Part shown: piece after piece, positions 4,261-30,890 of the stretch
Layout of the letters: the number at the start of each line of letters is the position of its first letter
Position numbering within the stretch: the first letter of the stretch is position 1
Source: Balanoglossus misakiensis
Taxonomy: Eukaryota > Animalia > Hemichordata
Assembly (NCBI GenBank): GCA_040954595.2
Contig: JBECUI020000054.1
Location: 1-59,237, forward strand
Direction: 5' to 3'
Length of the DNA stretch: 59,237 nt
The notes under the pieces: model-generated
The model's database searches: none
What the model saw: the letters and a program-made list of their open reading frames with translations, nothing else
What the model was told of the DNA's origin: nothing
Position numbers and translations under genes: made by a program

Positions 4261-4350
4261 AATTTGGGTCGGAAATTTTTATGTTCTTACATTAGTTTTT
4301 GAGGGAAAAAATGCAGAAAGCTACTCGATAGGCAGGGCTATCACCCCAAT

Positions 4351-6066: not shown

Positions 6067-8047
6067 TTTGTTGAACGCCTAGATTGTGCGCCAGTTCGTA
6101 CCTGTCTCTCTGAAGTCATGTGATTTGCTTATGAATTGACTCTGCGTACGTGATACTGTAGTATGTAGGCGAGGCGAACTGAATTTCAGTAGCTAGGCAG
6201 TATTGAGTTGGACAAACTTTTCGCTTTGATCTTTGGACTTCATACTACATGTAGGTCTATATAAAGATACTCTTCATTGTACAGATGCCTGCGTAACCTC
6301 GCTAGTTCTTGTTTTTAACAGTTTCAAGTCTTTCAACATTGAGCTGCCACTATCAGCATCAATCAATCCAACCAGCCGATAACTGGCCTCAATAATTTAT
6401 TGCGTTACAACGCCTCCGTGCAGATTCTAATAACATGCATATACATTGTACATGCTCATACCACGAAAGTTGTGTCAGACGCAAGCTGAGTGCTGCATGA
6501 ATGAAATGCCCTTATCGCCAGCGACATTGCTAAGTCGCTGTCTGCATTGCAGCCACCTTCACTGTAAACGATAAATATGATAAATATTTGTCCAGAATGT
6601 GAATCGTAGAGAGAAGATCTTGACAGAATATGTGAAATAGTGCTTATAATATTATGATCGTCCTACACATGTAGAATCTCAGCGTAATACAATGAATCCC
6701 TAACAGACTACCCACTGGGCCACCTTCCAGTATTCAGCGTCGCGTTTATGCAAATAAATCCGGAGAAATCTAGGCGATTTTGATGTAATCAATTCTTTGG
6801 AACATATAGAGTGTCGAGTGGGCAAGTGAACACATATCGATCCGTTTCTTTGACCTGAAGTCCTGGGGTTATCAGGGCTGTCACGCCTGCCCTCTGTTGT
6901 GTGACTTTATTGGGGGTTGGGACAAATGTGTAGGTTGTTTTTTGCTTTCTGTTTGTCTCTCACGGGATTGATGCATGAATCAGATTTGTCTATCATCAGA
7001 ATCTAGTCCGTCTGCAGACTTTACAGATGGCCAACGGCATCAGCCTATCCCTGGCGACTGGTGAGCCTATACGGTGACCTTTATATATGAACACACTCCA
7101 ATGGCATAGATGGGTTTTCTATCCAAAATTCTGGGTCTACTGTTCTCACTACATGTATATCGTTTACTTGTTTTATTTGAAATGTTAGTTTTCCCTGAGT
7201 AGGGCTTTCCAGGTTTAAAGCCCGAAGATATAAACGCAATTCTCAGAATGTTTATCAGGTCTGCGGGAAATCTGCATTTCTGAGTATTTCAAGAAGCCGC
7301 CCATTGCACAGCGCCAAAAATTTCACCGTGGTCACAATTGGACTATTTCATATACCCGTGGCATATCGCCGAAAGCCGGGGAAAAGTGTAACATTTTACC
7401 ATGTGGTCGACATCAAACACCCGGCGCGTTTGACGCTTCGCTGGGGGGGGGGGGGGGGTTGTATCTAAAAATACATACGAAAATCTGCTTCAGTCCCATA
7501 GCTGTACCTTGGCTTCTTTTATTTTGATAGACACTCACATGTTGATATTTAAATTTTGTTGATTTTATTATATCTATGCAATACATCAAACGCAATAGTA
7601 TTTCCAGTAGGACACTGATGTTGAAAATTTGAAATTTATAAAAAACTAAAACAACTTTAAAAAGAATCAATATACATAACAGTGCTTCCAAGTTAATACA
7701 GAGAGTGTTGGAATATTCATACCAAACTTGATTGGTTGAGACAGATTATTTGTGTGAATATTTCTAGGAAAATACAGCTTTTCCGCTCGAATTTGAAAAA
7801 GAAAAAAAAAACTGTGTTACATAGAGTAGAAATGGAACTATAATTTCCAATGTTTACATTTTTTTTGAAAATTAAAATTGTCACTTTGGTACACTATTTC
7901 TATGGCTTATGCATTCGAAGGTGAAAGACCAGAGTTCATCGTCTCTCTAATGTCAACAGTTGCGGATTTTGCTTCTTGGACATCAGCCACTGGGACAGTT
8001 GTTTGTAAAGCTTGTTTGTTAATACAGGGAGTCTTATGGACACTTAT

Positions 8048-10240
8048 TTACTGCGCGAATACCTTTACACAGTCGTTTCCATAGTCAACGACCAGAACCT
8101 TACAAAGTGGTTCATCATCCGTTACACAGATACCATAGGGTTCATTGAGTCCATCAACGTCACTGTCAACACGACAGACAAATTTCCCCCCAGATTCATA
8201 TTTGACAATTCTGTTATTGCCGTTATCTGAGACATACACATAGCCGTGTTTATCCACAGCCACTCCACGGGGGTAACTCAGCCGACCATCTCCACTTCCT
8301 TTGTAGCCGAATGTATACAGGAAGTGACCATCACCATCGAACACTTGGATTCGATGGTTGTAACCATCTGATACATAGACATTGCCTTTGTCGTCAATGC
8401 AGACAAACCATGGGTAGATAAACTCACCCTCCTTACTTCCCTTACTCCCAAATGATTTGATATGATTTCCATCTTGGTCGTAAATGTGAATACAGTGTCC
8501 ATAGTGATCCACAACATAAACCCTCCCATTCACAGGATTTATACCAATACCGATCGGAAATTTAATCTTTCCCTTCCCAAAACACTTGATCAGTTTGCCA
8601 TTCTCGTCACAGACAATTACCTGCGTATTTCCTGTATCTGTTGTGAAAACATTTCCATCCACCGACACAGCTGCATCGTATGGTTTAAATGATTTACCCA
8701 AATTTTCAAATCGGAATATTTTCTTCTGTTTTCCACCCACACTGAAAGATTGCAATCTGTGATTCCAACAGGCAGAAACTAACGCATCTCCTGTTCTTGT
8801 GAGGGTTACCCCATATGGATAATTCAGCTGACCAACCCCTGTACCCTTCTCCCCAAATTTACACACCAACCCCTTCTTAGGAATAACTTTAATTCTAACC
8901 GGTGAACCCCGTACTACTTTCTTACGTACCGACACTGACAGTTCACGTTCGCCTTCCGTGTTTGCACGAGTTTTTAAACTCAGAGTCCCGTCGTTATTAT
9001 CGCTGACTTCCACATTTTCTCCTGATGTCAAGGCAGCCTTAACTTCGTCGATCTTTGTCTTGAGCGGTGACGTCATTGTGACGCAGATTTCTTCGTCTAT
9101 TCTTCTGAAGTCCGGAGCATCCAGTATTTCATAGGCAACTGCAGTGGTCTCTATCGCTCCTAGCTTCTTCTCCTTACAGAAATCATCACACGGTTCGAAC
9201 TTCAGGTAGTCGCTCTCTATCGGTTCGGTTTCTGTCTCCAATTTCAGCAATTCTGTCATCTGACTGGCTATCCCCTTCTTTGCCGTCATCAGCTGCGTAG
9301 CGTTGCCATGGTGAACCAGTTTCTCGGCGTATTCTCGCGCGTGCGACAGATCATTCTGGCAAACTTCCATTTCTTTCAGCTGAGCGTTTAAATTCAATTT
9401 TCGCCTGTCGTATTCGTCTTTCAGTTCTTTCTGAAGTTTGTCGCCGTTTTCTTGTATCAGACGAGTGAGTTCTTCGATTGTTTTACGGATGTGTTCTCTC
9501 AGTTTGTCGCCTTCTCTCCTGAAGCTCTCGTCTAAGGATGTCGATACTTGGGTTACAGCTATCGTGCTCTCACTGACTTGAGTTTCTTTCGTTTTCACTT
9601 TGTCAATGGTCGTTAGCAAATCTTCGGTGTAGGCTTCGGCTGCCTGTTTCATAGAACGGTACTGGTGCTCGGGTTTGCAATGATCCAACGCCGTGCCCTT
9701 CAGACAGATCGCCTTGTCGCACGTATCGCAGTAGAATTCGATCTCGCAGTTTGGATGTTTGCTGCAGTAGATCGGTGGCTGAACGGAGGCGGGGTCGACC
9801 GACTTGGCGGTGCTGTATTCGTCCAGTGAAACGAGCCGGTGCAGTTTCGTCATCGGGACTTTTACGTGTCCCCTGGAACAAGCATCACACATTTCGAGCG
9901 AACACTCGACACAGTGCATGGTCCGAACGCCTTGCTCGCACAGTTCACACTTCATCGTTGACGTCGAAGTGTCTCGTTTATTGAGCAGTTCAACCAAATC
10001 GTTCAGAAAACCGCTGTTGTCGAAGCCGGACACGCCATTACCCGGAAGCTCGTGGGACCGCCGACATATTGGACAGTTTACAGCACCATGAGTTTTCTCT
10101 GCCAGCTTACCCAGACACGGCTCGCAGAAGGTGTGTAGACACGGTAGAATTTTCGCATTCTTGTACCTCTCTGAACAGACAGCACAGAGGAGGAAATTCT
10201 CGTCGATTTCCGTTGCAACCCCGGAATCCTTGGCAGCCAT
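8048..10240 (-). CDS. Intronless TRIM-NHL E3 ubiquitin ligase-like protein B1 (TRIM2/TRIM3-like architecture), ~730 aa
   Basis: RING CAVC..CLHTFCEPC..CPIC, two B-boxes, coiled coil, filamin-like segment (DNNDGT..GSPV) and six NHL repeats. Start placed at the MAAK ATG (10240) by analogy with the other paralogues. Confidence 0.92.
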   Translation of the reverse strand: MAAKDSGVATEIDENFLLCAVCSERYKNAKILPCLHTFCEPCLGKLAEKTHGAVNCPICRRSHELPGNGVSGFDNSGFLNDLVELLNKRDTSTSTMKCELCEQGVRTMHCVECSLEMCDACSRGHVKVPMTKLHRLVSLDEYSTAKSVDPASVQPPIYCSKHPNCEIEFYCDTCDKAICLKGTALDHCKPEHQYRSMKQAAEAYTEDLLTTIDKVKTKETQVSESTIAVTQVSTSLDESFRREGDKLREHIRKTIEELTRLIQENGDKLQKELKDEYDRRKLNLNAQLKEMEVCQNDLSHAREYAEKLVHHGNATQLMTAKKGIASQMTELLKLETETEPIESDYLKFEPCDDFCKEKKLGAIETTAVAYEILDAPDFRRIDEEICVTMTSPLKTKIDEVKAALTSGENVEVSDNNDGTLSLKTRANTEGERELSVSVRKKVVRGSPVRIKVIPKKGLVCKFGEKGTGVGQLNYPYGVTLTRTGDALVSACWNHRLQSFSVGGKQKKIFRFENLGKSFKPYDAAVSVDGNVFTTDTGNTQVIVCDENGKLIKCFGKGKIKFPIGIGINPVNGRVYVVDHYGHCIHIYDQDGNHIKSFGSKGSKEGEFIYPWFVCIDDKGNVYVSDGYNHRIQVFDGDGHFLYTFGYKGSGDGRLSYPRGVAVDKHGYVYVSDNGNNRIVKYESGGKFVCRVDSDVDGLNEPYGICVTDDEPLCKVLVVDYGNDCVKVFAQ

Positions 10241-10295
10241 GATCGCGCTGTTCGTTGATCGTCTGTTTACCGTTCTCGTGACCTGGCTAGTTACC

Positions 10296-10305
10296 ATCAC
10301 GTGAC
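10296..10305. promoter_or_regulatory. E-box/CLEAR-like palindrome ATCACGTGAC ~56 bp upstream of the TRIM B1 ATG
   Basis: TCACGTGA occurs at the same spacing upstream of paralogues (10758, 20791, 24977, 39978). Confidence 0.45.
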
Positions 10306-10615
10306 CAACTGTGCATTGACAATGTATTTCTACGAAAGGGGCTATACTATGGTCTTTCTTTTGTGGATCGTGGGGTTTAGATTTTCTGAAATCTTAGATT
10401 CGTGAACACAAATCAAAAGTATAATATTCGTTGTCCTCAGGTGAACTTTTAAATGACCCGACGTGACCTCATATGACCTCCAGAACTGTACATGTACGTT
10501 GTATCTTATTCTTCCTGATCATGATTCCTGAGCTGTACCAACACTGTCATCAACAATTTTGCGCGCAGACAACAGCAGCTTATAAATACATTTTGTAGCA
10601 AAATTTCGAAATGTT

Positions 10616-10785
10616 GAATCTTAGCATTCTGGTATCGCTGTGAGCATACACTACAGAGGAGAAAATTCTCGTTGATTTCCTCCAGAAAGGTGGTCGCCTT
10701 TGCAGCCATTTTGGTGAACGCCTAGATTGTGCGCCAGTTCGTACCCGTCGCTCTGAAGTCACGTGATTTGCTTACGAATTGGCTC
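10616..10785 (-). pseudogene. Relic of an A-type TRIM gene: promoter plus first ~31 codons
   Basis: MAAKATTFLEEINENFLLCSVCSQRYQNAKI is identical to the A1 start, then breaks; flanked by deletion junctions. Confidence 0.9.
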
Positions 10786-11418
10786 TCCTTTTACCATGTA
10801 GTCGACATCAAACACCCAGGGCTTTTGACGCTTCGCTGAAGGGGGGGGGGGGTATCAAAAATTACAAACGAAAATCTGCTTCAGTCCCATAGCTGTACTT
10901 TGGTTTCTTTTATTTTGATAGACACTCACATGTTGATATTTAAATTTTGTTGATTTTATTATATCTATGCCATACATCAAACGCAATAGTATTTGCAGTA
11001 GGACACTGATGTTGAAAATTTGAAATTTAAACAAAACTAAAACAACTTTAAGAAAGAATCAATATACATAACAGTGTTTCCAAGTTAATACAGAGAGTGT
11101 CGGAATATTCATACCAAACTTGATTGGTTGATACAGATTATTTGTGTGAATATTTCTAGGAAAATACAGCTTTTCCGCTCGAATTTGAAAAAAAAGAAAA
11201 CTGTGTTACATAGAGTAAAAATGGAACTATAATTTCCAATGTTTACATTTTTTTTTTGAAAATTAAAATTGTCACTTTAGTACACTATTTATATGGCTTA
11301 TGCATTCGAAGGTGAAAGACCAGAGTTCATCTTCTCTCTAATGTCAACAGTTGCGGATTTTACTTCTTGGACATCAGCCACTGGGACAGTTGTTTGTAAA
11401 GCTTGTTTGTTAATACAG

Positions 11419-12269
11419 TGTTACGTATTCTGCAAACTGCAAGTCAGTGCTGATTGGACATGTGTTACGTAGGTTCAGTCGGCTATTGTTTTGTGACCAG
11501 GTGTGTTTTTCGTGTGCGTTTCGTTTGCTTTCTTTATTTGAATATTTAAGTGACCAGGTGTGAGGAATTAATTTTTGGCTAGTATAAAAGCCCGCTCGTT
11601 GCCACGTTGTGCGAGTGGATGTTAATTTGACCTGGAGGACGTGCTGCTCGTTTGAACCGTCTTGGAAGCTGTGGCTGCTCTTCTGAACAAGTTGTAAGTC
11701 GTTCTGTTTCGTGTGGAGCGGACTTTTGAAGCGGACTTTTGTGGAGCAGACTTTTGCGGACTTTTGTGGAGCAGACTTTTGCGGACTTTTGTGGAACCAG
11801 TTGGAGCTGGACTTTTGCCTGGACCGCCGTGTCGCTGTGTCTACGCTGAACTGCCGCCGAGTTGGAGCTGTCGCTGTGTCTACGCTGAACTGCCGCCGAG
11901 TTGGAGCTGTCGCTGTGTCTACACTGAATTATCGCCGAGTTGCTGTGTCTACGTGTCCTCCGTCAAGTCAGCGGAACGTTCTAGCGGACATTGGACTTGT
12001 TCTGTTTCAGTTTATGCACACCTGGTCACGTTTAAAAAGGTAGTTCACTTGTTTCTTGTGTGTTTCTTTAGTTTATAATATTTAATGTTCACGATTATTT
12101 TAGTTATTATTAAATTCGTTATAAATAAGGTGATTTGCTGGTTGTTGTGACTTTTGTTGACCAACTTTGTTGCGTGCGGCGCTGGTTTGGTTCCTTACAA
12201 AGTACGCCATCCGGCTAGTGTGTTTATTGCTCGCCCTGTTTCGGCTGGAACGGCCAGCGTGTCGTAACA
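11419..12269 (+). repeat. 5' LTR (851 bp)
   Basis: TG...CA termini, TATAAAAG near 11584, internal 24-bp and 39-bp tandem repeats. Confidence 0.96.
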
Positions 12270-12272
12270 AAT

Positions 12273-12290
12273 TGGGGGCTCGTCCGGGAT
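12273..12290 (+). promoter_or_regulatory. Primer binding site complementary to the tRNA-Pro 3' end
   Basis: TGGGGGCTCGTCCGGGAT, 3 nt after the LTR; matches the canonical tRNA-Pro PBS used by murine leukaemia virus. Confidence 0.93.
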
Positions 12291-12348
12291 CTATCCTTGA
12301 ATTCATTCAGTGCGCACGGTCAATAACGGTTCACAATTACTATTCGTA

Positions 12349-15300
12349 ATGGCTTCCACAGCGGAGTTCAACGTAACTGAGTTTGTTAAAAATGAAAATT
12401 TAACTGTTGATGATTTACAACGTTTGCGAAAGGCTGAACTACAGCAGGTAGCTGCTCATTTTGGTGTCAGTCTTGGTAGTAATGTAACAAAAAAGGAAAT
12501 TATTGATAGTATTTCTGTTTTCCTTGGTTTGACTAAACATGGTATGCATAATGCTGAGAGTACTGAAGTGGCATTGGCAAAAATTGAACTTGAAAGAGAG
12601 AAATTAAGACTTGCTCAAGAAAGAGGAGAGGCCCAATTATTGAGAGAAAAAGAAAGAGAAGAGGCCCAATTATTGAGAGAAAAAGAAAGAGAAGAGGCCC
12701 AATTATTGAGAGAAAAAGAAAGAGAAGAATTCGAGTTGAGGAAGTTAGAACTTGAACTTCAGTTAAGTCGACAGAATCATGAACCTGTTCAGAGCACTAC
12801 GAGAAGTTCTGATTTTGATGTTACTAAATATATTAAGTTGGTCCCAAGGTTTTCTGAAGCCGAAGTAGATACTTACTTTTTGGCTTTTGAGAAAATTGCG
12901 AGACAACTTAAGTGGCCAACTAAATTTTGGACTTTGTTGCTTCAAAGTGTGTTTGTTGGGAAAGCCCAGGAAGTGTTTTCTTCCCTGTCTGATTCAGATT
13001 CTGAAGATTATGAAATTGTCAAGAAAGCAGTTCTATCCGCTTATGAGTTAGTTCCCGAGGCTTATAGACAGAAGTTTAGAAATTTAAGGAGACAGACTGG
13101 ACAAACCTTTGTTGAATTTGCAAGAGAGAAGGAAATTATATTTGATAGATGGTACCGTTCCTTGCAAACTGAAAAAGAATTTAATATACTGAGGGAGGTA
13201 ATACTCATGGAGGAATTTAAGAACAGCATCCCTTTGGACATTAGAACCCATATTGATGAACATAAAGTTACAGAACTAAAGCGGGCAGCCGTTATTGCTG
13301 ATGATTATGAGCTTACTCACAAGAAAAGTGGTAGTAGCTCACCTAATTATAATAGGTATGGTAATAAACCTTTCACTAATTATGCCAAATTTGATAACAG
13401 GGTAAATCATCCTAGTCCAGACAGAAAGGGCCAGTCTGTTGCTGCTAATAAGCCACCTGAGATTAGAAGGGGTCCTGTCTGTTTCCATTGTGGTAAAGTG
13501 GGGCACATTAAGTCTAATTGTTATCAATGGAAGAAGAGTAACCAGAGGGATAGTAAACCTGTGGCTTTTGTTAATAGAAATGCCGATATCCGTACAGATA
13601 GTCATATAAATATTGGTGATAAGTACCAAAGTTTGCCTGCACGAGATAACTGTAAAATCCCCAAGTCTATTCCTGACGGTTATAGGGATTTTGTATCCCA
13701 AGGAGAGGTATCTGAATTATCTGACGTGCATGAAGTAAAGCCCATTATCATACTGAGGGATACTGGTGCCGCTCAATCATTAATGTTAGCAGACGTCTTG
13801 CCAGAGAATGTATGTCGTTCAATGGATACCAGAATGTTGCTGCAAGGTATAGGTGGTAATTTTGTTTCGGTTCCTTTGTGTGAGGTTAATTTGAATTCTG
13901 ACCTAGTCAATGGTCGGGTTAAAGTTGGCATTGTCCAATCTTTACCAATAGAGGGGGTAGATTTTCTCTTGGGGAATGATCTAGCTGGGGGAAAGGTTCA
14001 AGTCTCTCCCATACTTACTAAATTTCCATCTGTCCAACCGGCCACAGAGGAATTAAAGGATACATTTCCGGGTATATTTCCATCATGTGCAGTTACCAGG
14101 TCACAGTCACGTGTTGCGCGTTTAGATGAGGCGAATTCTCCCGACGTTCCCAATTCTGGTGTTTGGTTGGCAGAAACATTTTTCAAAGATTTAGACAGTG
14201 GGGATGGTCTATCTAAACCTGGTGATTCTGAGACCGTGTTTACTCAGACTTCTCTAATAAAAGAACAAAAGGCTGATCCAATTCTGAATGACTTAATTCA
14301 TAAGGCATTATCAGAATCCGAAGCCAACAATGTTCCAGAATGTTATTACATGAAGTCAGGAATTTTAATGAGAAAGTGGAGACCACCGTCTGTTCCTGCT
14401 GATCAGGATTGGTTGGTGAAAAATCAAATAGTGGTACCTGCATGTTACCGTCCTGAAATTCTGCGTTTGGCCCACGAAATTCCTATGGCTGGGCATTTGG
14501 GCATTCGAAAAACACAATCCAGGGTTATGGCTCATTTTTATTGGCCAAAATTGCATCAGGATGTTGTTGAATTTTGCAAAACTTGTCATACGTGTCAGCT
14601 GTTAGGCAAACCCCAGCCGGCGATCAAACCCGCTCCATTAATTCCAATTCCTGCGTTCGGCGAACCCTTCAGTAAGGTTCTAATTGATTGTGTGGGCCCT
14701 TTGCCGAGAACCAAATCTGGTAATAAATATCTTTTGACAATTTTAGACACATCGACCAGATTTCCTGAGGCTATTCCTTTGAAAAACATCTCTACCAAAG
14801 TAGTAGTTGACGCGCTAATGCATTTCTTCACACGGTATGGTTTGCCCAAGGAGGTCCAAACAGATCAAGGGTCCAACTTTATGTCTGGTTTATTTCAGGA
14901 AGTGTTGTGTCAATTGGGGGTTACACAGTTGCATTCGTCGGCCTACCATCCTCAATCTCAAGGTGCGTTGGAAAGGTATCACCAAACGCTAAAGAATATG
15001 TTGAAGGCATACTGTTTGGAATACCCTGGGGATTGGGATAAGGGCGTTGCATTTGTATTATTTGCCACAAGGGATGCCCCTAACGAATCAACTGGTTTTA
15101 CTCCCTTTGAACTTGTATATGGTCATGAAGTCAGGGGCCCTCTTAAATTCATCAAAGAGAGATTTCTTAATGAACAGGATGATGTCAACCTCCTGGATTA
15201 CGTTTCCAAATTTCGAGAACGTTTGACTAAGGCCTGTGATTTGGCTAGACACCATCTGAAACTGTCTCAGCAAACCATGAAGAGGTATTATGATAGGGAT

Positions 15301-17052
15301 AGTCAATTTCGCAAATTTAAAGTTGGTGACAAAGTTTTAGTTTTGTTACCTATACCAGGTGAACCATTATCCGCTAAATTCAGGGGGCCCTATGAAGTAG
15401 AAAAGAAATTGAATAGTGTGAATTATGTTATCCGAACCCCTGACAGACGCAAGACACGCAGGGTTTGTCATATTAATATGTTGAAGCTGTATTTTGTTCG
15501 TGAAGGTGACCATAAGCATTCCGTTGGTTTGGCTGCTGCTGTCAACAATATGGATGTTCACAATGTCGATTGCAATGATACAGAATGTGTTGAGTTTGAG
15601 GTGACTGAAGTTGATTCTATGACGGGAAAATTGTCTAATTCGGAAGCACTTGCTAATTTACAGTCTACTTTATGTCACTTGCCTGAGAATGAAAGGGCTG
15701 GCATTGTCAAACTTATAAATGAATATAAACCTCTGTTTTCCGATGAACCGGGTTGCACGTCCATAGCTGAACATGACGTAGACGTCGGCAATGAACCACC
15801 TATCAAACAACACCCCTATAGGTTAAATCCTTATAAAGCAGCCAAAGTTGAGGAGGAATTGCAGTATATGTTGGACCACGACCTAATTGAACCAAGTGAG
15901 AGTAGTTGGAGCTCTCCAGTAGTGTTAGTACCAAAGCCAGACAAGTCTTTGAGATTTTGCATAGATTATCGCAAGGTAAATGCTGTTACGCGTACTGATT
16001 CCTATCCACTTCCTCGAATTGAGGATTGCATTGACAAAATTGGTACAGCCAAGTATGTAACCAAAATTGATTTGTTGAAAGGTTATTGGCAAGTACCTTT
16101 GTCTAACAGAGCCAGGAAAATTTCTGCTTTCATTACTCCAAACGGATTGTACCAGTTTAAAGTAATGCCCTTTGGCATGAAAAATGCCCCGGCTACATTT
16201 CAAAGGTTGATGAACAAGGTCACAGCCGGTTTAGCATATTGTGTTGTGTATATTGATGATATTCTGGTTTTCAGTGACACATGGGAAGATCATGTAACCC
16301 ATTTAAGGAATCTGTTTCAGCGGCTTCACGAGGCTAATCTGGTGGTTAATCTGTCAAAGAGTGGTTTTGCCAAAGCCAAAGTGGTTTATCTTGGGCATGT
16401 CATAGGTGAAGGCAGAGTGTCTCCAAGACAAGCGAAAATTCAAGACATCATAGAGTTTCCAGTGCCTACAAATAAGCGAGAATTACGCCGTTTTCTAGGC
16501 GTTTCGGGGTTTTATCGGAAATGTTGTGCAAATTATAGCACCATTGTTGCTCCTCTCACTAATTTGCTTAAAAAGAGTGTAAAATACGAGTGGTCCGATT
16601 CGTGTCAAAATGCATTCGATGTAATAAAAGCAGTTCTAGCAAGTGAGCCAGTGCTTACGGCTCCAGATTTCTACAAGCCGTTTAAATTGGCTATTGATGC
16701 CAGTGATGTTGGTATCGGTGCCGTCTTATTGCAGGATGATGAATCAGGTATCGAGAAACCTGTCAGTTATTTTTCGAGAAAACTAAACCGTCACCAAAGA
16801 GTGTATTCTACCATTGAGAAAGAGGCTTTAAGCCTAGTGTCTGCTCTTCAGCATTTTGAAATTTATGTGACTAATGGGGTAGGTGATGTTACTGTTTACA
16901 CAGATCACAACCCACTTGTATTTCTTGACAAGTTCAAAACAAAGAGTAACAGGTTGTTTCGCTGGAGTTTGTTGCTTCAGCCTTATTCAATTAAAGTCGT
17001 ACATATTTCTGGAAAAGAAAATGTCATTGCAGATGCACTATCCAGAGTTTAG
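12349..17052 (+). CDS. Gag-Pol polyprotein: Gag (SCAN-related capsid, CCHC knuckle), aspartic protease, integrase, reverse transcriptase, RNase H
   Basis: In order: CFHCGKVGHIKSNC; LRDTGA; HHCC (AHEIPMAGHLG...CKTC); DCVGP/TDQGSNF/ERYHQTLK; GPY; YIDD; DASDVG...ADALSR. No stops or frameshifts; first ATG at 12349. Confidence 0.96.
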   Translation: MASTAEFNVTEFVKNENLTVDDLQRLRKAELQQVAAHFGVSLGSNVTKKEIIDSISVFLGLTKHGMHNAESTEVALAKIELEREKLRLAQERGEAQLLREKEREEAQLLREKEREEAQLLREKEREEFELRKLELELQLSRQNHEPVQSTTRSSDFDVTKYIKLVPRFSEAEVDTYFLAFEKIARQLKWPTKFWTLLLQSVFVGKAQEVFSSLSDSDSEDYEIVKKAVLSAYELVPEAYRQKFRNLRRQTGQTFVEFAREKEIIFDRWYRSLQTEKEFNILREVILMEEFKNSIPLDIRTHIDEHKVTELKRAAVIADDYELTHKKSGSSSPNYNRYGNKPFTNYAKFDNRVNHPSPDRKGQSVAANKPPEIRRGPVCFHCGKVGHIKSNCYQWKKSNQRDSKPVAFVNRNADIRTDSHINIGDKYQSLPARDNCKIPKSIPDGYRDFVSQGEVSELSDVHEVKPIIILRDTGAAQSLMLADVLPENVCRSMDTRMLLQGIGGNFVSVPLCEVNLNSDLVNGRVKVGIVQSLPIEGVDFLLGNDLAGGKVQVSPILTKFPSVQPATEELKDTFPGIFPSCAVTRSQSRVARLDEANSPDVPNSGVWLAETFFKDLDSGDGLSKPGDSETVFTQTSLIKEQKADPILNDLIHKALSESEANNVPECYYMKSGILMRKWRPPSVPADQDWLVKNQIVVPACYRPEILRLAHEIPMAGHLGIRKTQSRVMAHFYWPKLHQDVVEFCKTCHTCQLLGKPQPAIKPAPLIPIPAFGEPFSKVLIDCVGPLPRTKSGNKYLLTILDTSTRFPEAIPLKNISTKVVVDALMHFFTRYGLPKEVQTDQGSNFMSGLFQEVLCQLGVTQLHSSAYHPQSQGALERYHQTLKNMLKAYCLEYPGDWDKGVAFVLFATRDAPNESTGFTPFELVYGHEVRGPLKFIKERFLNEQDDVNLLDYVSKFRERLTKACDLARHHLKLSQQTMKRYYDRDSQFRKFKVGDKVLVLLPIPGEPLSAKFRGPYEVEKKLNSVNYVIRTPDRRKTRRVCHINMLKLYFVREGDHKHSVGLAAAVNNMDVHNVDCNDTECVEFEVTEVDSMTGKLSNSEALANLQSTLCHLPENERAGIVKLINEYKPLFSDEPGCTSIAEHDVDVGNEPPIKQHPYRLNPYKAAKVEEELQYMLDHDLIEPSESSWSSPVVLVPKPDKSLRFCIDYRKVNAVTRTDSYPLPRIEDCIDKIGTAKYVTKIDLLKGYWQVPLSNRARKISAFITPNGLYQFKVMPFGMKNAPATFQRLMNKVTAGLAYCVVYIDDILVFSDTWEDHVTHLRNLFQRLHEANLVVNLSKSGFAKAKVVYLGHVIGEGRVSPRQAKIQDIIEFPVPTNKRELRRFLGVSGFYRKCCANYSTIVAPLTNLLKKSVKYEWSDSCQNAFDVIKAVLASEPVLTAPDFYKPFKLAIDASDVGIGAVLLQDDESGIEKPVSYFSRKLNRHQRVYSTIEKEALSLVSALQHFEIYVTNGVGDVTVYTDHNPLVFLDKFKTKSNRLFRWSLLLQPYSIKVVHISGKENVIADALSRV

Positions 17053-17175
17053 AATGTATAACAGGATAGCTTTTTGAAATGATTCTTGAATGATTCTTGA
17101 AATGATGTTTTTGAAATAATTAACATATGTGATTACCCCTTGAAAAACGTCACCATGGTAACGTTTTTCTTTTCT

Positions 17176-17186
17176 GAGGGGGGAGG
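17176..17186 (+). promoter_or_regulatory. Polypurine tract
   Basis: GAGGGGGGAGG immediately before the TG of the 3' LTR. Confidence 0.9.
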
Positions 17187-18048
17187 TGTTACGTATTCTG
17201 CAAACTGCAAGTCAGTGCTGATTGGACATGTGTTACGTAGGTTCAGTCGGCTATTGTTTTGTGACCAGGTGTGTTTTTCGTGTGCGTTTCGTGTGCGTTT
17301 CGTTTGCTTTCTTTATTTGAATATTTAAGTGACCAGGTGTGAGGAATTAATTTTTGGCTAGTATAAAAGCCCGCTCGTTGCCACGTTGTGCGAGTGGATG
17401 TTAATTTGACCTGGAGGACGTGCTGCTCGTTTGAACCGTCTTGGAAGCTGTGGCTGCTCTTCTGAACAAGTTGTAAGTCGTTCTGTTTCGTGTGGAGCGG
17501 ACTTTTGAAGCGGACTTTTGTGGAGCAGACTTTTGCGGACTTTTGTGGAGCAGACTTTTGCGGACTTTTGTGGAACCAGTTGGAGCTGGACTTTTGCCTG
17601 GACCGCCGTGTCGCTGTGTCTACGCTGAACTGCCGCCGAGTTGGAGCTGTCGCTGTGTCTACGCTGAACTGCCGCCGAGTTGGAGCTGTCGCTGTGTCTA
17701 CACTGAATTATCGCCGAGTTGCTGTGTCTACGTGTCCTCCGTCAAGTCAGCGGAACGTTCTAGCGGACATTGGACTTGTTCTGTTTCAGTTTATGCACAC
17801 CTGGTCACGTTTAAAAAGGTAGTTCACTTGTTTCTTGTGTGTTTCTTTAGTTTATAATATTTAATGTTCACGATTATTTTAGTTATTATTAAATTCGTTA
17901 TAAATAAGGTGATTTGCTGGTTGTTGTGACTTTTGTTGACCAACTTTGTTGCGTGCGGCGCTGGTTTGGTTCCTTACAAAGTACGCCATCCGGCTAGTGT
18001 GTTTATTGCTCGCCCTGTTTCGGCTGGAACGGCCAGCGTGTCGTAACA
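17187..18048 (+). repeat. 3' LTR (862 bp)
   Basis: Matches the 5' LTR by eye except for an extra 11-bp TTTCGTGTGCG unit near 17287. Confidence 0.96.
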
Positions 18049-18072
18049 ACAGCGAGTCTTATTGACACGTAT

Positions 18073-20742
18073 TTACTGCGCGAATACCTTTACAGAGTTG
18101 TTTCCATTGTCAACGACCAGAACCTTACAAAGTGGTTCATCATCCGTTACACAGATACCATGAGGATCACTGAGTCCATCGTCGTCACTGTCAACACGAC
18201 AGACAAATTTCCCCCCAGATTCATATTTGACAATTCTGTGATTGTCGCTATCTGAGACATACACATAGCCGCGTTTATCCACAGCCACTCCAAGGGGGTT
18301 ACTCAGCTGACCATCTCCACTTCCGTAAGAGCCGAATGAATACAGGAAGTGACCATCACCATCGAACACTTGAATTCGATGGTTTCCGGCATCTGATACA
18401 TAGACATTGCCTTTGTCGTCAATGCAGACAAACCATGGGAAGTAAAACTCATCCTCCTTACTTCCCATTCTCCCAAATGATTTGATATGATTTCCATCCT
18501 GGTCGTAGATGTGAATACAGTCTCCATGGTAATCCACAACATAAACCCTCCCATTGACAGGACTTATGCCAATACCGAGCGGCAATTCAATCTTTCCCTT
18601 CCCAAAACACTTGATCAGTTTGCCATTCTCGTCACACACAATTACCTGCTTATTTCCTTCATCTGTTGTGAAAATATTCCCATCCACTGACACAGCTGCA
18701 TCGTTTGGTTTAAATGCATTACCCACATTTCCAAATCGGAATATTTTCTGCTGTTTCCCACCCACACTGAAAGATTGCAATCTATGATTACCAAAGTCAG
18801 AAACTAATGCATCACCTGTTCTTGTGAGGGTTACCCCACATGGATCATTCAGCTGACCAACCCCTGAACCCTTCTCCCCAAATTTACATATCAGCCCTTT
18901 CTTAGGGACCACATTACTTCTAACTGGTGATCCCTGTACAGGTTTCTTACGGATTGGAGTCTTCAAAGTCGTCGTTTCGTTTCTACTCACTTCCACTCTC
19001 TCCACACCATCAAATCCCTTCGATTTGACCGCGTCGGTAGAAGCTGAACCGTGCGTTCTGTTGCCTCCAGTTGCCGTGGCTACGGTGTTATCCGTTCGAG
19101 TCTTTGACACACCCATCTTCAAAGTCATTGTTCCGTTTCTACTCTCTTTCACCCTCTCAGGACTCTCAACTTCCTTCGATTCCGATTTGACCGCGTCGGT
19201 AGAAGCTGAACAGTGCGTATTGTTGTCTCCCGTTGCCGTGGCTACGGTGTTATCTCCACCATCCGTTCGAGTCTTCGACACACCCGTCTTCAAAGTCATT
19301 GTTCCGTTTCTACTCTCTTTCACCCTCTCTGGACTCTCAACTTCCTTCGATTCCGATTTGACCGCGTCGGCGGAAGCTGAACCGTGCGTTCTGGTGTCTC
19401 CCGTTGCCGTGGCTACGGTGTTATCTCCACCATCCGTTCGAGTCTTCGACACACCCGTCTTCAAAGTCATTGTTCCGTTTCTACTCTCTTTCACCCTCTC
19501 AGGACTCTCAACTTCCTTCGATTCCGATTTGACCGCGTCGGCGGAAGCTGAACCGTGCGTATTGTTGTCTCCCGTTGCCGTGGCTACGGTGTTATCTTCA
19601 TCATCCGTCCGAGTCTTTGACACACCCGTCAATGTATACGTCATCGCTGTTTGGATTATACCGAGGGTCTTCGTCTTGCAGAAGTCGCCACTCGGTTTGA
19701 ACTCCATGTAGTCACTCTCTCTCGGCTCGCACTTACTCTCTTCCTTCAGTAATTGTTTCACTTTGGTAGAGATTCCAACTTTGGCCGACATCAGATGCGC
19801 AGCGTTGCCATAATTCATTAGCTTCTCGGCATATTCTCGTGCATTTGAGAGATCATACTGCATGATTTCCAGTTCTTTCAGTTGGGCGTTCAAATTGACG
19901 TTTCTGGAGTCGTATTCGGCCTTCATTTCTGTCTGAAGTTTGTCGTCATCTTCTGTAATAAGACGAGTCGTTTCTGTTATGGTTTTCTGAGTGTGATCTT
20001 TCAGTTTCTTGGTTTCTTTCTTGAAGCACGTATCCAGGGATTGCAAGGTGAACGTCACGGCAGTTTTGCTGTCGTTTGCTTCGGTTTCTTTCATTTTCAC
20101 TTTGTCAATCATGGCCGTCAGATGTTTGGTGTATTCTGTGGCTGCATCTTTGACGCACCTGTATTTGTGCTGTGTCATTGGATGGTCTAACACGGTACAC
20201 TTCAGACAGATGGCCGCGTCGCATGTATCGCAGTAGAATTCGATCTCGTAGTTTGGGTGCTTGGTGCAGTAGACCGGAGGCTGCACTGACGCCGGGTCGG
20301 CGGACTTGGCTGAGAGATACTCGTCAAGGGAAATCAGGCGGTGGGATCTCGTCAGCGGAAGCACCTTGTGCGTGGCTTCACACGCGGAGCATATGGCGAT
20401 GGTACACTCCACGCAGTGCTTCACCTGATCCCCTTGCTTGCAGCCTTCACATTTCGCCAGATCTTCTTGCTTGTCGCCTCGTTTCTTGATCAAGTCCACC
20501 AAATCGTTCAAGAACGGGTTGTTGTCAAGGCCGGCTGCACCGTCGGCGGGCAGTTGATGTGATCGCCGACACACCGGGCAGGTCACAGACCGGCCTCCCC
20601 CGGCCAGCTTACCCAGACACGGCTCACAGAAGGTGTGCAGACACGGTAGAAGCTTAGCATTCTGGTATCGCTGTGAGCATACACTACAGAGGAGAAAATT
20701 CTCGTTGATTTCCTCCAGAAAGGTGGTCGCCTTTGCAGCCAT
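18073..20742 (-). CDS. Intronless TRIM-NHL protein A2, 889 aa, with a Ser/Thr/charged tandem-repeat linker in place of an intact filamin domain
   Basis: RING, two B-boxes, coiled coil, 3 full and 1 degenerate 57-aa repeats, six NHL repeats; open frame. Confidence 0.92.
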   Translation of the reverse strand: MAAKATTFLEEINENFLLCSVCSQRYQNAKLLPCLHTFCEPCLGKLAGGGRSVTCPVCRRSHQLPADGAAGLDNNPFLNDLVDLIKKRGDKQEDLAKCEGCKQGDQVKHCVECTIAICSACEATHKVLPLTRSHRLISLDEYLSAKSADPASVQPPVYCTKHPNYEIEFYCDTCDAAICLKCTVLDHPMTQHKYRCVKDAATEYTKHLTAMIDKVKMKETEANDSKTAVTFTLQSLDTCFKKETKKLKDHTQKTITETTRLITEDDDKLQTEMKAEYDSRNVNLNAQLKELEIMQYDLSNAREYAEKLMNYGNAAHLMSAKVGISTKVKQLLKEESKCEPRESDYMEFKPSGDFCKTKTLGIIQTAMTYTLTGVSKTRTDDEDNTVATATGDNNTHGSASADAVKSESKEVESPERVKESRNGTMTLKTGVSKTRTDGGDNTVATATGDTRTHGSASADAVKSESKEVESPERVKESRNGTMTLKTGVSKTRTDGGDNTVATATGDNNTHCSASTDAVKSESKEVESPERVKESRNGTMTLKMGVSKTRTDNTVATATGGNRTHGSASTDAVKSKGFDGVERVEVSRNETTTLKTPIRKKPVQGSPVRSNVVPKKGLICKFGEKGSGVGQLNDPCGVTLTRTGDALVSDFGNHRLQSFSVGGKQQKIFRFGNVGNAFKPNDAAVSVDGNIFTTDEGNKQVIVCDENGKLIKCFGKGKIELPLGIGISPVNGRVYVVDYHGDCIHIYDQDGNHIKSFGRMGSKEDEFYFPWFVCIDDKGNVYVSDAGNHRIQVFDGDGHFLYSFGSYGSGDGQLSNPLGVAVDKRGYVYVSDSDNHRIVKYESGGKFVCRVDSDDDGLSDPHGICVTDDEPLCKVLVVDNGNNSVKVFAQ
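18958..19626 (-). repeat. Coding 171-bp tandem repeat, 3 full + 1 degenerate unit
   Basis: GVSKTRT...TLKT units in the A2 translation. Confidence 0.95.
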
Positions 20743-22728
20743 TTTGGTGAACGCCTAGATTGTGCGCCAGTTTGTACCTGTCTCTCTGAAGTCACGTGAT
20801 TTGCTTACGAATTGACTCTGTGTACGTGATACTGTAGTATGTAGGCGAGGCAAACTAAAGCCCAGTAGCTAGGCACTATTGAGTTGGACAAACTTTTCGT
20901 TTTGATCTTTGGACTTCATACTACATGTATAGGTCAATATAAAGATACTCGTCATTGTACAGATGCCTGTGTAACCTCGCTAGTTCCTGTTTTAACAGTT
21001 TCAAGTCTTTCAACATTGAGCTGCCACTATCAGCATCAATCAATCCAACCAGCCGATAACTGGCCTTAATAATTTATTGCGTTACAACGCCTCCGTGCAG
21101 ATTCTAATAATATGCATATACATTGTACGTGCTCATACCACGAAAGTTGTGTCAGACGCAAGCTGAGTGCTGCATGAATGAAATGCCCTTATCGCCAGCG
21201 ACATTGCTAAGTCGCTGTCCGCATTTCAGCCACCTTCACTGTAAACGATAAATATGATAAACATTTGTGCAGAATGTGAATTGTAGAGAGAAGATCTTGA
21301 CAGAATATATGAAATAGTGCTTATAATAGTATGATCGTCCTACACATGTAGAATCTCAGCGTAATACAATGAATCCCTAACAGACTACCCACTGGGCCAC
21401 CTCCAGTATTCAGCGGCGCGTTTATGCAAATAATTCCGGAGAAATCTGGGCGATTTTGATGTAATTATTTCTTTGGTACATACAGAGTGTTGAGTGGGCA
21501 AGTGAACACATATCGACCCGTTTCTTTGACATGAAGTCCTGGGGTTATCAGGGCTGTCACGCCTGCCCTCTGTTCGGTGATTTTATTGGGTGTGGGGACA
21601 AATGTATAGGTTGTTTTTTTTCTTCTGTTTGTCTCTCACGGGATTGATGCATGAATCAGATTTGTCTATCATCAGAATCTAATCCGTCTGCAGAGTTTAT
21701 AGATGGCCAACGGCATGAGTCTTTCCCTGGCGACTGGTGGGCCTATACGGTGACCTTTAAATATGAACACACTCTAACGGTACAGACGGTTCTTCTATCC
21801 AAAATTCTGGGTCTACTGTTCTCACTACATGTATATCGTTTATTTGTTTTATTTGAAATGTTAGTTTTCCCTGAGTAGGGCTTTCCAGGTTTAAAGCCCG
21901 AAGATATAAACGCAATTCTCAGAATGTTTATCAGGTCTATGGGAAATTTGCGTTTCTAGTATTTCAAGAAGCCGCCCAATGCACAGTGCCAACAATTATC
22001 ACCGTGGTCACAACTGGACTATTTCATATACCTGTGGCATATCGCCGAAAGCCGGGGAAAAGTGTAACATTTTACCATGTAGTCGACATCAAACACCCAG
22101 CGCGTTTGACGCTTCGCTGGTTGGGGGGGGGGGGGGGGGGTTGCATCTAAAAATACAAACGAAAATCTGCTTCGGTCCCATAGCTGTACCTTGGCTTCTT
22201 TTATTCTGATAGACACTCACATGTTGATATTTAAATTTTGTTGATTTTATTATATCTATGCAATACATCAAACGCAGTAGTATTTCCAGTAGGACACTGA
22301 TGTTGAAAATTTGAAATTTATAAAAAACTAAAACAACTTTAAGAAAGAATCAATATACATAACAATGCTTCCAGGTTAATACAGAGAGTGTCAGAATATT
22401 CATACCAAACTTGATTGGTTGATACAGATTATTTGTGTGAATATTTCTAGGAAAATACAGCTTTTCCGCTCGAATTTGAAAAAAAAAGAAAACTGTGTTA
22501 CATAGAGTAGAAATGGAACTATAATTTCCAATGTTTACATTTTTTTTGAAAATTAAAATTGTCACTTTGGTACACTATTTATATAGCTTATGCATTCGAA
22601 GGTGAAAGACCAGAGTTCATCTTCTCTCTAATGTCAACAGTTGCGGATTTTGCTTCTTGGACATCAGCTACTGGGACAGTTGTTTGTAAAGCTTGTTTGT
22701 TAATGCAGGGAGTCTTAAGGACACTTAT

Positions 22729-24921
22729 TTACTGCGCGAATACCTTTACACAGTGGTTTCCATAGTCAACGACCAGAACATTACAAAGTGGTTCATCATC
22801 CGTTACACAGATACCTTGGGGACCTTTGAGTCCATCATCATCACTGTTAACACGACAGACAAATTTCCCCCCAGATTCATATTTGACAATTCTGTTATTG
22901 TTGCAATCTGAGACATACACAAAGCCGTGTTTATCCACAGCCACTCCGCGGGGGGAACTCAGCTGACCATCTCCACTTCCTTTGGAGCCGAATGTATACA
23001 GGAAGTGACCATCACTATCGAACACTTGAATTCGATGGTTCCAAGTATCTGATACATGGACATTGCCTTTGCCGTCAATGCAGACAAACCATGGGTAGTT
23101 AAACTCACCCTCCTTACTTCCCTTACTCCCAAATGATTTGATATGATTTCCATCTTGGTCGTAGATATGAATACAGTGTCCATGGTAATCCACAACATAA
23201 ACCCTCCCATTGACAGGACTTATGCCAATACCGATCGGCAATTTAATCTTTCCCTTCCCAAAACACTTGATCAGTTTGCCATTCTCGTCACAGACAATTA
23301 CCTGCTTATTTCCTTGATCTGTTGTGAAAACATTTCCATCCACTGACACAGCTGCATCGTATGGTTTAAATGCATTACCCAAATTTTCAAATCGGAATAT
23401 TTTCTGCTGTTTTCCACCCACACTGAAAGATTGCAATGTATGATTACCATAGTCAGAAACTAACGCATCTCCTGTTCTTGTGAGGGTTACCCCATATGGA
23501 CCGTTCAGCTGACCAACCCCTGAACCCTTCTCCCCAAATTTACACACCAACCCCTTCTTAGGAATAACTTTAATTCTAACCGGTGAACCACGTACTACTT
23601 TCTTACGTACCGACACTGACAGTTCATGTTCGCCTTCCGTGTTTGCACGAGTTTTCAAACTCAGTGTTCCGTCGTTATTATCGCTGACGTCCATCTTTTC
23701 TCTTAATGTCAAGACAGCCTCAACTTCTTCGATTTTCGTCTTGACTGGCGACGTCATAGTAACGCAGATTTCTTCGTCTATTCTTGTGAAGTCTGGAGCA
23801 TCCACTATTTCATAGGCAACTGCAGTGGTCTCTATCGCTCCTAGCTTCTTCTCCGTACAGAAATCATCACACGGTTCAAACTTCAGGTAGTCGCTCTCTA
23901 TCGGTTCGGTTTCTGTCTTCAATTTCAGCAATTCTGTCATCTGACTGGCTATCCCCTTCTTTGCCGTCATCAGCTGCGTAGCGTTGCCATGGTGAACCAG
24001 TTTCTCGGCGTATTCTCGCGCGTGCGACAGATCATTCTGGCAAACTTCCATTTCTTTCAGCTGAGCGTTTAAATTCAATTTTCGCCTGTCGTATTCGTCT
24101 TTCAGTTCTTTCAGAAGTTTGTCGCCGTTTTCTTGTATCAGACGAGTGAGTTCTTCGATTGTTTTACGGATGTGTTCTCTCAATTGGTCGCCTTCTCTCC
24201 TGAAGCTCTCGTCTAAGGATGTCGATACTTGGGTAACAGCTATCGTGCTCTCACTGACCTGAGTTTCTTTCGTTTTCACTTTGTCAATGGTCGTTAGCAA
24301 ATCTTCGGTGTAGGCTTCGGCTGCCTGTTTCACACAACGGTACTGGTGATCGGGTTTGCAATGATCCAACGCCGTGCACTTCAGACAGATCGCCTTGTCG
24401 CACGTATCGCAGTAGAATTCGATCTCGCAGTTTGGATGTTTGCTGCAGTAGATCGGTGGCTGAACGGAGGCGGGGTCAACCGACTTGGCGCTGTTGTATT
24501 CGTCCAGCGAAACGAGCCGGTGCAGTTTCGCCAACGGGACTTTTACGTGTCCCCTGGAACAAACATCACACATTTCGAGCGAACACTCGACACAGTGCAT
24601 GGTCCGAACGCCTTGCTCGCACAGTTCACACTTCATCGTTGACGTCGAAGTGTCTCGTTTATTGAGCAGTTCAACCAAACCGTTCAGAAAACCGCTGGTG
24701 TCGAAGCCGGACACGCCATTACCCGGAAGCTCGTGGGACCGCCGACATATTGGACAGTTTACAGCACCATGAGTTTTCTCTGCCAGCTTACCCAGACACG
24801 GCTCGCAGAAGGTGTGTAGACACGGTAGAATTTTCGCATTCTTGTACCTCTCTGAACAGACAGCACAGAGGAGGAAATTCTCGTCGATTTCCGTCGCAAC
24901 CCCGGAATCCTTGGCAGCCAT
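22729..24921 (-). CDS. Intronless TRIM-NHL protein B2, ~730 aa
   Basis: Same architecture and length as B1 with all zinc ligands intact; MAAK ATG at 24921. Confidence 0.93.
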   Translation of the reverse strand: MAAKDSGVATEIDENFLLCAVCSERYKNAKILPCLHTFCEPCLGKLAEKTHGAVNCPICRRSHELPGNGVSGFDTSGFLNGLVELLNKRDTSTSTMKCELCEQGVRTMHCVECSLEMCDVCSRGHVKVPLAKLHRLVSLDEYNSAKSVDPASVQPPIYCSKHPNCEIEFYCDTCDKAICLKCTALDHCKPDHQYRCVKQAAEAYTEDLLTTIDKVKTKETQVSESTIAVTQVSTSLDESFRREGDQLREHIRKTIEELTRLIQENGDKLLKELKDEYDRRKLNLNAQLKEMEVCQNDLSHAREYAEKLVHHGNATQLMTAKKGIASQMTELLKLKTETEPIESDYLKFEPCDDFCTEKKLGAIETTAVAYEIVDAPDFTRIDEEICVTMTSPVKTKIEEVEAVLTLREKMDVSDNNDGTLSLKTRANTEGEHELSVSVRKKVVRGSPVRIKVIPKKGLVCKFGEKGSGVGQLNGPYGVTLTRTGDALVSDYGNHTLQSFSVGGKQQKIFRFENLGNAFKPYDAAVSVDGNVFTTDQGNKQVIVCDENGKLIKCFGKGKIKLPIGIGISPVNGRVYVVDYHGHCIHIYDQDGNHIKSFGSKGSKEGEFNYPWFVCIDGKGNVHVSDTWNHRIQVFDSDGHFLYTFGSKGSGDGQLSSPRGVAVDKHGFVYVSDCNNNRIVKYESGGKFVCRVNSDDDGLKGPQGICVTDDEPLCNVLVVDYGNHCVKVFAQ

Positions 24922-25246
24922 GATCGCGCTGTTCGTTGATCGTCTGTTTACCGTACTCGTGACCTGGCTAGTTACCATCACGTGACCAAAATTCTACGAA
25001 CTGTGCATTGACAATGTATTTCTACGAAAGGGGCTATACTATGGTCTTTCTTTTGTGCATATGGAGTTGAGAGATTTTGAAATTTAAGATTCGTGAACAC
25101 AAATCAAAAGTATAATATTCGTTGTCCTCAGGTGAACTTTTAAATGACCCGACGTGACTTCATATGACCTCCAGAACTGTACATGTACGTTGTATCTCAT
25201 CTTTCTATTCCTATCAGGCCGAAATGTGGAAATGTGACGTGTAGGA

Positions 25247-28960: not shown

Positions 28961-29803
28961 ATCCATGATTATTTTCCAGAATGGTACGTGTATGCTGAAA
29001 TCCACAGATATATCGATGTGTAGCTTTCCCTGGTTCATGCAATTACAATGAAAAGCCTGCTTTTAATTTTGACTTATGCAATGCGTATCAATGTCGTCAG
29101 CCTCTAGTTAGATACTGATACACCTTAAAAGGAGAGAAATTTATGCGTGAATTTTTAACACAATAATTACCGCTGGTCTATAAATATCCTTACTTTGAAA
29201 CAAAGTTGTTAGTTGGTACGTCGACAAAGTCGTTTGTTCGACTTTCACAATCTGCTTGATAAACGGCGGCGAAAACGAAGGTATGTTTCTTGAAGCTTAC
29301 ACTATTCGGTAGTGTGGACCGAACTACATTGACTGTAGCAATGCAATAATGGAGCGAAGACATTTTGTAAAATAATGCCTTACTTTTGAAAAAAAAGTTT
29401 AATTTTGTACGTTTGCAAAGTGTCTTTTTCAACTCCCACCATCTTCTTGATACAAGCATTCGGTAAGGTTATTTGTATACGTGTTTATTACTATACAATA
29501 GTGCAAGGTAACAAACAAAAACGACAATGTACATGTATGTAACTGCTTACAAACTTGTGACATAAAGAGTTGTAGGAAGCAAAATCTGCGACAAGACTAA
29601 ATGTATTTTAAAGTGGATATGCTATGGATGTGTACAGAAGGACCTTGTCTATAAGACCTGTAGAAATTTGATTACAGAAATAACAGGAACCGAATAATGT
29701 GTTCTCTCTTTGAATGCTATTAAATTTCAGAAAGTATATTAATTCATTAATTGCAGTATGTCTGTCTTCAAAACTGCGTTTTTATAAGACTTTATATGAC
29801 ATC

Positions 29804-30694: not shown

Positions 30695-30725
<31 letters not shown>

Positions 30726-30801
30726 TGTATGTATGTATGTATGTATGTATGTATGTATGTATGTATGTGTGTATGTATGTATGTATGTATGTATGTATGT
30801 A

Positions 30802-30890
<89 letters not shown>

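Follow-up and report, generated by a model that had tools for sequence, protein, structure and literature searches.

TRIM-NHL proteins of class VII (subfamily C), such as TRIM2, TRIM3, TRIM71/LIN41, Brat and Thin, share a RING-B-box-coiled coil-filamin-NHL domain order and are regarded as conserved regulators. Group 1 TRIMs were described as highly conserved among vertebrates, and the same study notes a filamin-related subgroup as the sole invertebrate expansion (PMC2533329). In contrast, positively selected and diversified recognition is known for the B30.2 (PRY-SPRY) domain of vertebrate class IV TRIMs (TRIM5alpha/TRIM22, finTRIM, btr and trim35). In the fish multigene sets, the B30.2 loops were found to be under positive selection, and the authors call for binding evidence (PMC3137616); tandem TRIM expansions have been described as possibly linked to defence (PMC3503706). 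A further relative, TRIM56, combines a RING-B-box-coiled coil (RBCC) body with two B-boxes and an NHL-like domain, which is reported to be antiviral through both RNA and protein binding (PMC11768893). A survey that gives 17 positively selected primate TRIMs does not place TRIM56 among them, and assigns to TRIM2 two selected sites, both outside known domains (PMC3845644). The present report concerns a group of TRIM-NHL genes found in a window of 59,237 nt (contig JBECUI020000054.1, assembly GCA_040954595.2) of the acorn worm Balanoglossus misakiensis, in which the putative ligand-binding face of the NHL propeller is hypervariable.

By domain content, these genes are class VII (subfamily C) TRIM-NHL genes, neither LIN41 nor class IV TRIMs, yet to judge from their sequences they evolve like class IV. 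They differ from the known class VII members, which are conserved one-to-one orthologues, in their dozens of lineage-specific copies, in their hypervariable face and in a coding region made of a single exon. They resemble class IV TRIMs in joining an RBCC body to a C-terminal domain with hypervariable loops, in forming multigene sets and in recombination, but the head is an NHL propeller instead of B30.2/PRY-SPRY and the host is an invertebrate deuterostome. TRIM56 is a single gene, and the RING region of the window genes scores lower to it than to TRIM3 and TRIM2.

Six TRIM genes (A1, B1, A2, B2, C and D), all with intronless coding regions, are carried by the minus strand of the window, and three of them have a closely related NHL domain. 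B1 (8048..10240, minus strand) is an open reading frame of 730 aa with RING, B-box1, B-box2, coiled coil, filamin and NHL (8051-8875); B2 (22729..24921, minus strand) is likewise of 730 aa, with its NHL at 22732-23556; and A2 (18073..20742, minus strand) is a chimeric frame of 889 aa, composed of an A-type RBCC, 57-aa repeats and a B-type NHL (18076-18900). The Pfam RING model zf-C3HC4 scored above its cut-off in A1, B1, A2, B2 and D, with TRIM3 and TRIM2 as best PDB matches. The zf-B_box model was above cut-off in A1, A2 and D and below it in B2 (22.5 vs 24.1 bits), while B1, with Gly at Cys182, gave no match; the B-box/coiled-coil region aligns with TRIM28. NHL reached 95-110 bits. Filamin gave a weak match in B2, whereas A2 has repeats in its place. 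No SPRY or PRY match was obtained in the six TRIM frames scanned with Pfam. The AlphaFold model of the B2 NHL is a six-bladed propeller of 24 strands (mean predicted local distance difference test score, pLDDT, 96.9), which matches the NHL domains of TRIM2, TRIM3, Thin and LIN41 at template modelling (TM) scores of 0.89-0.94, with 0.93 to human TRIM2.

A sequence-only reading of this DNA had listed xPx and Dxx loops that change from copy to copy on an almost invariant scaffold. Each listed loop of B1, A2 and B2 is present as written, and two more vary, namely the blade-2 xPx loop (FKPY/FKPN/FKPY in B1/A2/B2) and the blade-6 Dxx loop (DYG/DNG/DYG). The hand counts given for B1 and B2 also held, with 34 of 275 NHL residues differing against 14 of 350 N-terminal residues (15 of 366 up to the filamin domain). 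The scaffold attached to these loops, said to be near-identical and to form a constant E3 module, is so for the RBCC of B1 and B2, but neither for A2, with only 59.5% RBCC identity to B2, nor for the filamin domain of B1 and B2, in which 12 of 89 residues differ.

The variation is clustered on one face of the propeller rather than scattered, as had been proposed. Repeat topology was used to draw a top-face class of 48 positions, eight from each of the six blades: the four from P-2 to P+1, which span the conserved Pro, and the four from D+1 to D+4, which follow the conserved Asp. Variation among B1, A2 and B2 affects 27 of these 48 positions, compared with 3 of 47 in bottom loops, 13 of 54 in distal loops and 11 of 126 in strands (top face vs bottom loops, Fisher p 8e-8), and all 13 positions with three states are on the top face. 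In the B2 model, the Pro starts each first strand and D+1 to D+4 lie in the loop that joins the second strand to the third. Since the class was drawn with the claim already known, two independent classes were added, one taken from LIN41 contacts and the other from positions in other species. In LIN41, 14 RNA-contacting residues are placed on the NHL upper surface (PMC5908797), and the face assignment of the variable loops rests on these residues. They were mapped by hand onto the TRIM71 chain at offsets P-2, P-1, P+1, D+1 and D+2, with blades assigned by order. The variable sites of the window genes are the positions that contact RNA in LIN41: 10 of the 14 equivalents vary among B1, A2 and B2, against 44 of 261 other positions (p 2e-5).

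The same pattern recurs in other species. Among 7997 candidates scored, 78 relatives of B2 were found at an expectation value (E) of 1e-50 or better, with a best identity of 59-60%; 72 are hemichordate (36 from Ptychodera flava, 30 from Glandiceps talaboti and 6 from Saccoglossus), 4 are from the amphioxus Branchiostoma and 2 are unnamed proteins. In quick FastTree trees, the window genes nest among Ptychodera sequences and the family shows species-specific tip clades. For the comparison of faces, 63 database NHL domains covering at least 250 of the 275 positions were taken from 96 proteins. The 12 columns of highest entropy are all on the face, as are 25 of the top 40. Close pairs with at most 20% off-face divergence numbered 59; they overlap, were chosen for that low divergence and were compared at the protein level, and in 57 of them face change exceeds bottom-loop change at p <0.05, the exceptions being P0040/P0050, which do not differ at any of the 40 face positions compared, and P0006/P0003 (p 0.08). 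The extreme pair, Glandiceps P0085/P0020, differs at 21 of 48 face positions and at 6 of 227 elsewhere, and the face differs likewise between close paralogues of Ptychodera, Glandiceps and amphioxus. Twelve disjoint pairs were hand-picked, with P0040/P0050 among those left out; several belong to one clade, so that they represent fewer than 12 independent events. Between their members, 223 of 572 face positions differ, against 36 of 547 in bottom loops. Thirty-two positions differ in at least 5 of the 12 pairs, 29 of them on the face, and these positions, defined outside the window, predict its variation: 25 of the 32 vary among B1, A2 and B2, against 29 of 243 others.

The copies in the window probably arose by duplication and recombination. 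A unit of about 6 kb is present twice, as unit 1 (4451..10509, with part of A1 and B1) and unit 2 (19127..25200, with part of A2 and B2), at 95.4% identity, and the units are evenly diverged in non-coding DNA (89 of 1976 sites, about 4.5%). Such high identity and even divergence would also be expected if the assembler had placed both haplotypes of a single locus side by side, so that B1 and B2 were allelic and the array partly an artefact, and no read or contig was seen to bridge the two units. This is hardly probable, because a diploid single locus could not supply the NHL, the 3' flank and the A-type start in three copies each and close same-chromosome paralogues are present in related genomes; were B1 and B2 alleles after all, the face signal would persist as balancing selection.

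A2 is A-type in its RBCC, which shares 216 of 363 residues (59.5%; 68% in DNA) with B2, and B-type in its NHL, which is 91-93% identical in DNA to the B-type NHL. Its 3' flank (10789..11418, minus strand), now separated from it by a retrotransposon, is 94-95% like those of B1 and B2. Accordingly, A2 groups with A1 in RBCC trees (support 1.0) and with B1 and B2 in NHL trees (0.98), which indicates a chimera joined near the filamin/NHL border. Its likely origin is an unequal crossover or a deletion within an array of B-A-B-A order, which fits the relic of a third A-type gene start at 10613..10786 (minus strand), consisting of upstream bases and about 32 codons. RBCC and NHL are uncoupled in the same way in Ptychodera P0092, which differs from P0080 at 99 of 370 RBCC positions and at 17 of 223 off-face NHL positions. 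In the A-type genes (4449-4954 and 19021-19630), filamin is replaced by 3 to 3.6 copies (about 3.6 in A2) of a 171-base (57-aa) repeat, which is Thr/Ser/Gly-rich and aligns loosely to part of the filamin domain; the repeats are likely to act as a flexible spacer altering the reach of the head. The filamin segments of B1 (~8910-9125) and B2 (~23590-23805) differ at 11 synonymous sites in 89 codons beside their 12 residue differences, and their synonymous divergence (dS) is 0.19, against 0.03 in the RBCC, which suggests that this tract is likely an older converted or recombined stretch.

Diversifying selection on a ligand-binding face, analogous to the SPRY loops of TRIM5, had been proposed for these genes, and this idea is supported by codon models, run with our own GY94-type code on the three NHL sequences (B1, A2 and B2), together with the recurrence in other species. 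Site models favoured a selected class (M1a/M2a, twice the log-likelihood difference (2dL) 12.1, p 0.002; M8a/M8, p 0.0005; M7/M8, p 0.002), although the per-site posteriors of M2a were uninformative, as every variable codon fell in the selected class. With fixed classes and a shared synonymous rate, the ratio of nonsynonymous to synonymous divergence (dN/dS) was 4.1 for the 48 top positions (p 3e-7; profile interval about 2.5-7), 7.0 for the 14 LIN41-contact equivalents (p 4e-7), 6.7 for 30 offset positions (p 4e-11) and 6.6 for the 32 positions defined from other species only (p 2e-11), against 0.5-0.8 for the remaining NHL codons in the tests of the 14-, 30- and 32-position classes. Every pair is significant alone, including B2/A2 without B1 (dN/dS 5.3, p 3e-6). 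CpG hypermutability and double-base mutation were considered as causes of the signal and ruled out: CpG-type changes account for just 5 of the 45 face bases that vary, and the site-model results were unaltered when adjacent double-base changes were permitted.

Several results weigh on the other side. Over the whole NHL, the dN/dS under M0 is 0.98. When face codons were given a synonymous rate of their own, the estimates for the classes of 48, 14, 30 and 32 positions fell to 2.0, 2.9, 2.8 and 3.2, with p values of 0.12, 0.16, 0.049 and 0.023, so that the predicted excess above 1 at the loops holds under a shared rate and is borderline under a free local one. The codon sequences are only three, the face-codon dS is raised (0.14-0.20, from about 30 sites, vs 0.05-0.10 elsewhere), and null simulations with codon-wise rate variation reached a 2dL of 12 in 3 of 22 runs. 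The replication in other species is at the protein level only, in pairs that share ancestry within each genus. In addition, two of the genes (A1 and C) are broken, and B1 carries two changes that look damaging.

These observations bear on an explanation without positive selection, in which the loops are unconstrained, dN and dS are both elevated there by mutation hot spots or by gene conversion over short tracts, and conversion homogenises the scaffold. Besides the raised loop dS, the borderline free-rate tests and the codon-wise null runs, the mosaic structure of the locus, with the A2 chimera and the filamin tract, speaks for it. However, the data reject relaxation under a shared rate (p 3e-7), and a 2dL of 12 was reached in none of 22 plain and none of 22 mosaic-tract null runs (highest tract-wise value 11.4). 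Purely synonymous changes show no enrichment, either in the face itself (3 of 18, p 0.18) or up to two codons away from it (4 of 18, p 0.81), and the few CpG-type changes also argue against hot spots. A neutral process would moreover need to strike the same twelve four-codon windows in four genera, and this explanation is considered quite unlikely. An equally raised synonymous divergence across the NHL, as old conversion tracts would leave, is absent from the domain as a whole, in which the dS between B1 and B2 is 0.06, near the 4.5% of non-coding DNA, but not from the loop codons; at the nucleotide level, B1 and B2 differ at 30 of 144 face sites and at 23 of the 681 other NHL sites. Conversion and diversifying selection acting together also yield a locally raised dS. 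Given the three sequences and the borderline free-rate tests, positive selection on the NHL face is likely, yet short of proof.

The chemistry of the face bears on its ligand. At the 14 LIN41-contact positions, B1, A2 and B2 have one Arg/Lys each and none of 68 domains has more than 5, against 8 in LIN41; since this basic pocket is absent, RNA as the default ligand is unsupported. At the 30 face positions of the 68 domains, Tyr reaches 12.0%, Trp 4.0%, Asn 12.5%, Ser 12.4% and Arg 6.7%, compared with 0.7%, 0.2%, 8.4%, 7.7% and 2.7% in the other loops. Such a Tyr/Trp/Asn/Ser-rich face resembles antibody paratopes. The net face charge ranges from -4 to +6 with a mean of +1.7, and A2 (-4) and B2 (+4) are far apart though close copies. 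RNA may be bound at such a face by base stacking.

It could be supposed that the genes encode mRNA regulators like Brat and LIN41, or self/non-self (gamete or allo-) recognition factors, that diversify towards new host targets. Ancient NHL subfamilies have strongly different top faces, which bind different RNAs, and the human ones differ between paralogues (PMC5908797; PMC9634614); the aromatic residues can stack on bases, and the mean face charge is positive. Regulators keep their face, however, as the ten named RNA contacts are common to zebrafish and human LIN41, whereas the window copies, with a neutral divergence of about 4.5%, differ at 18-27 of the 48 positions of the face. The spread of face charge, also between close copies, is a further point against this explanation, which is held to be quite improbable.

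Selection could also be real and have an internal opponent, with the family tracking proteins or RNAs of retrotransposons or endogenous viruses as a germline genome defence. This alternative predicts an identical sequence signature, TRIM-NHL proteins take part in germline RNA control, and a very recent long terminal repeat (LTR) element without LTR substitutions points to active retrotransposition in this genome. The position of this retrotransposon beside A2 is uninformative on targeting, and a face without the LIN41 basic pocket argues against the idea, which is regarded as unlikely, although less so than the preceding one.

The explanation preferred here, with somewhat better than even confidence, is that the young copies of this expanded TRIM-NHL family constitute an inherited repertoire of cytosolic sensors, which would bind molecules of pathogens and mark them with ubiquitin. 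This is based on the domain order, the modelled fold, the clustering of change on the face that holds the ligand in LIN41, the replacement excess under a shared rate, the recurrence in three other genera and the transfer of heads between bodies; that an NHL-like domain is already used for antiviral binding in TRIM56 was also counted in its favour. In TRIM biology, each coiled-coil dimer has two heads, and the target is ubiquitinated when RINGs cluster. By analogy with the family, dimers would present two NHL propellers, and target binding would draw the RINGs together, leading to ubiquitination. The evolutionary pattern alone suggests a target among fast-evolving invaders (a virus, an intracellular microbe or a retroelement) and a ligand that would more likely be a protein or glycan surface than an RNA backbone. 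Diversity would be generated by selected point changes in twelve short loop segments, by gain and loss of tandem copies, and by recombination where filamin meets NHL; head swapping, expansion and broken copies beside intact ones are observed for the family.

A broader and more tentative proposal, to which we give rather less than an even chance, is that marine invertebrate deuterostomes carry germline-encoded, intracellular antibody-like E3 ligases, in which twelve Tyr/Trp/Asn/Ser-rich loop segments would serve as paratopes against pathogen proteins or glycans and heads would be swapped between RBCC bodies at the filamin/NHL border. If true, this would be for invertebrates what the PRY-SPRY TRIM arsenal is for vertebrates, on a fold otherwise familiar chiefly from RNA regulators of development. 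A family with the NHL face as its variable surface would give acorn worms and amphioxus a candidate means of cytosolic pathogen sensing, which would bear on the detection of varied intracellular invaders by invertebrates that lack adaptive immunity. Testable residues can be named, and the propeller offers a natural scaffold free of cysteine bridges whose variable face is already joined to an E3 ligase.

No expanded TRIM-NHL family with a selected top face was found in a literature search that covered few subscription papers. A coral study reports one NHL-domain gene with Ka/Ks above 1 that is upregulated on symbiont infection (PMC7783167), and the main text of an amphioxus pangenome paper contains no mention of NHL or tripartite (PMC12373286).

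A1 (4351..6066, minus strand) has an A-type RBCC and 57-aa repeats without an NHL, and its truncated end adjoins an inverted-repeat element (1-4277). In B1, Gly replaces a B-box2 Cys at residue 182 and Ala replaces the blade-1 Asp at residue 490, so that this copy may be decaying. C (37717..39916, minus strand) is a distant paralogue, 51-61% to B2, split over three reading frames and likely a pseudogene. D (41681..43909, minus strand) is intact, with 742 aa and 38% to B2, and is sister to Ptychodera P0052 in both RBCC and NHL trees; the two differ at 26 of 47 face and 71 of 225 other positions, a weaker contrast than among the young copies. A small NHL fragment at 35816-36165, beside a long four-base microsatellite, matches B2 at 81% over 26 residues and at 33% over 101, and is a remnant of another copy. 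Outside the window, three hemichordate relatives (P0059, P0069 and P0071) join an RBCC to other Pfam domains (PF00638; PF03256) without NHL, which suggests further head replacement in the family.

Contigs from three DNA sequencing runs of one sample aligned to B2 in numbers of 397, 187 and 45, many of them 82-95% alike, with up to 22 at one NHL position; this hints at further copies, though the figure is no copy number. No RNA run was listed among those containing part of the window, which is no evidence on expression. An alignment to 180 bases, intended to count silent and replacement variants, was uninformative: the contigs stopped fitting at the loops or close to them, and no more than 3 of the 31 variants listed were on the face. 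A metagenome scan for related DNA gave 42 loci with 25-58% identity over repeat-length segments, which were left unused.

The retrotransposon beside A2 (11419..18048, plus strand), a Ty3/gypsy-type LTR element, is inserted about 24 bases behind the A2 stop codon. Its LTRs show 0 substitutions and one 11-base length difference, the target duplication is ACAG (4 bases), and there is one open frame of 1583 codons. The element has a SCAN domain in the Gag region and an integrase that precedes the reverse transcriptase; it is very recent and apparently intact. This gene order is Gmr1-like, and the primer site resembles tRNA-Pro. In the large inverted repeat at 1-4277, positions 1-1852 match 4157-2312 at 96.8%, each outer end carries tandem units of 360 bases, and a Pfam search of its transposase-like fragments gave no match. 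Exon-like pieces lie on the plus strand at 29714-34894, with a signal-peptide-like start and Cys-rich repeats at 34649-34877; one stretch resembles a subtilase start, and the frames tried gave no Pfam match. A direct repeat of 678 bases, with 97.8% identity, is found at 44091-44768 and 46819-47490.

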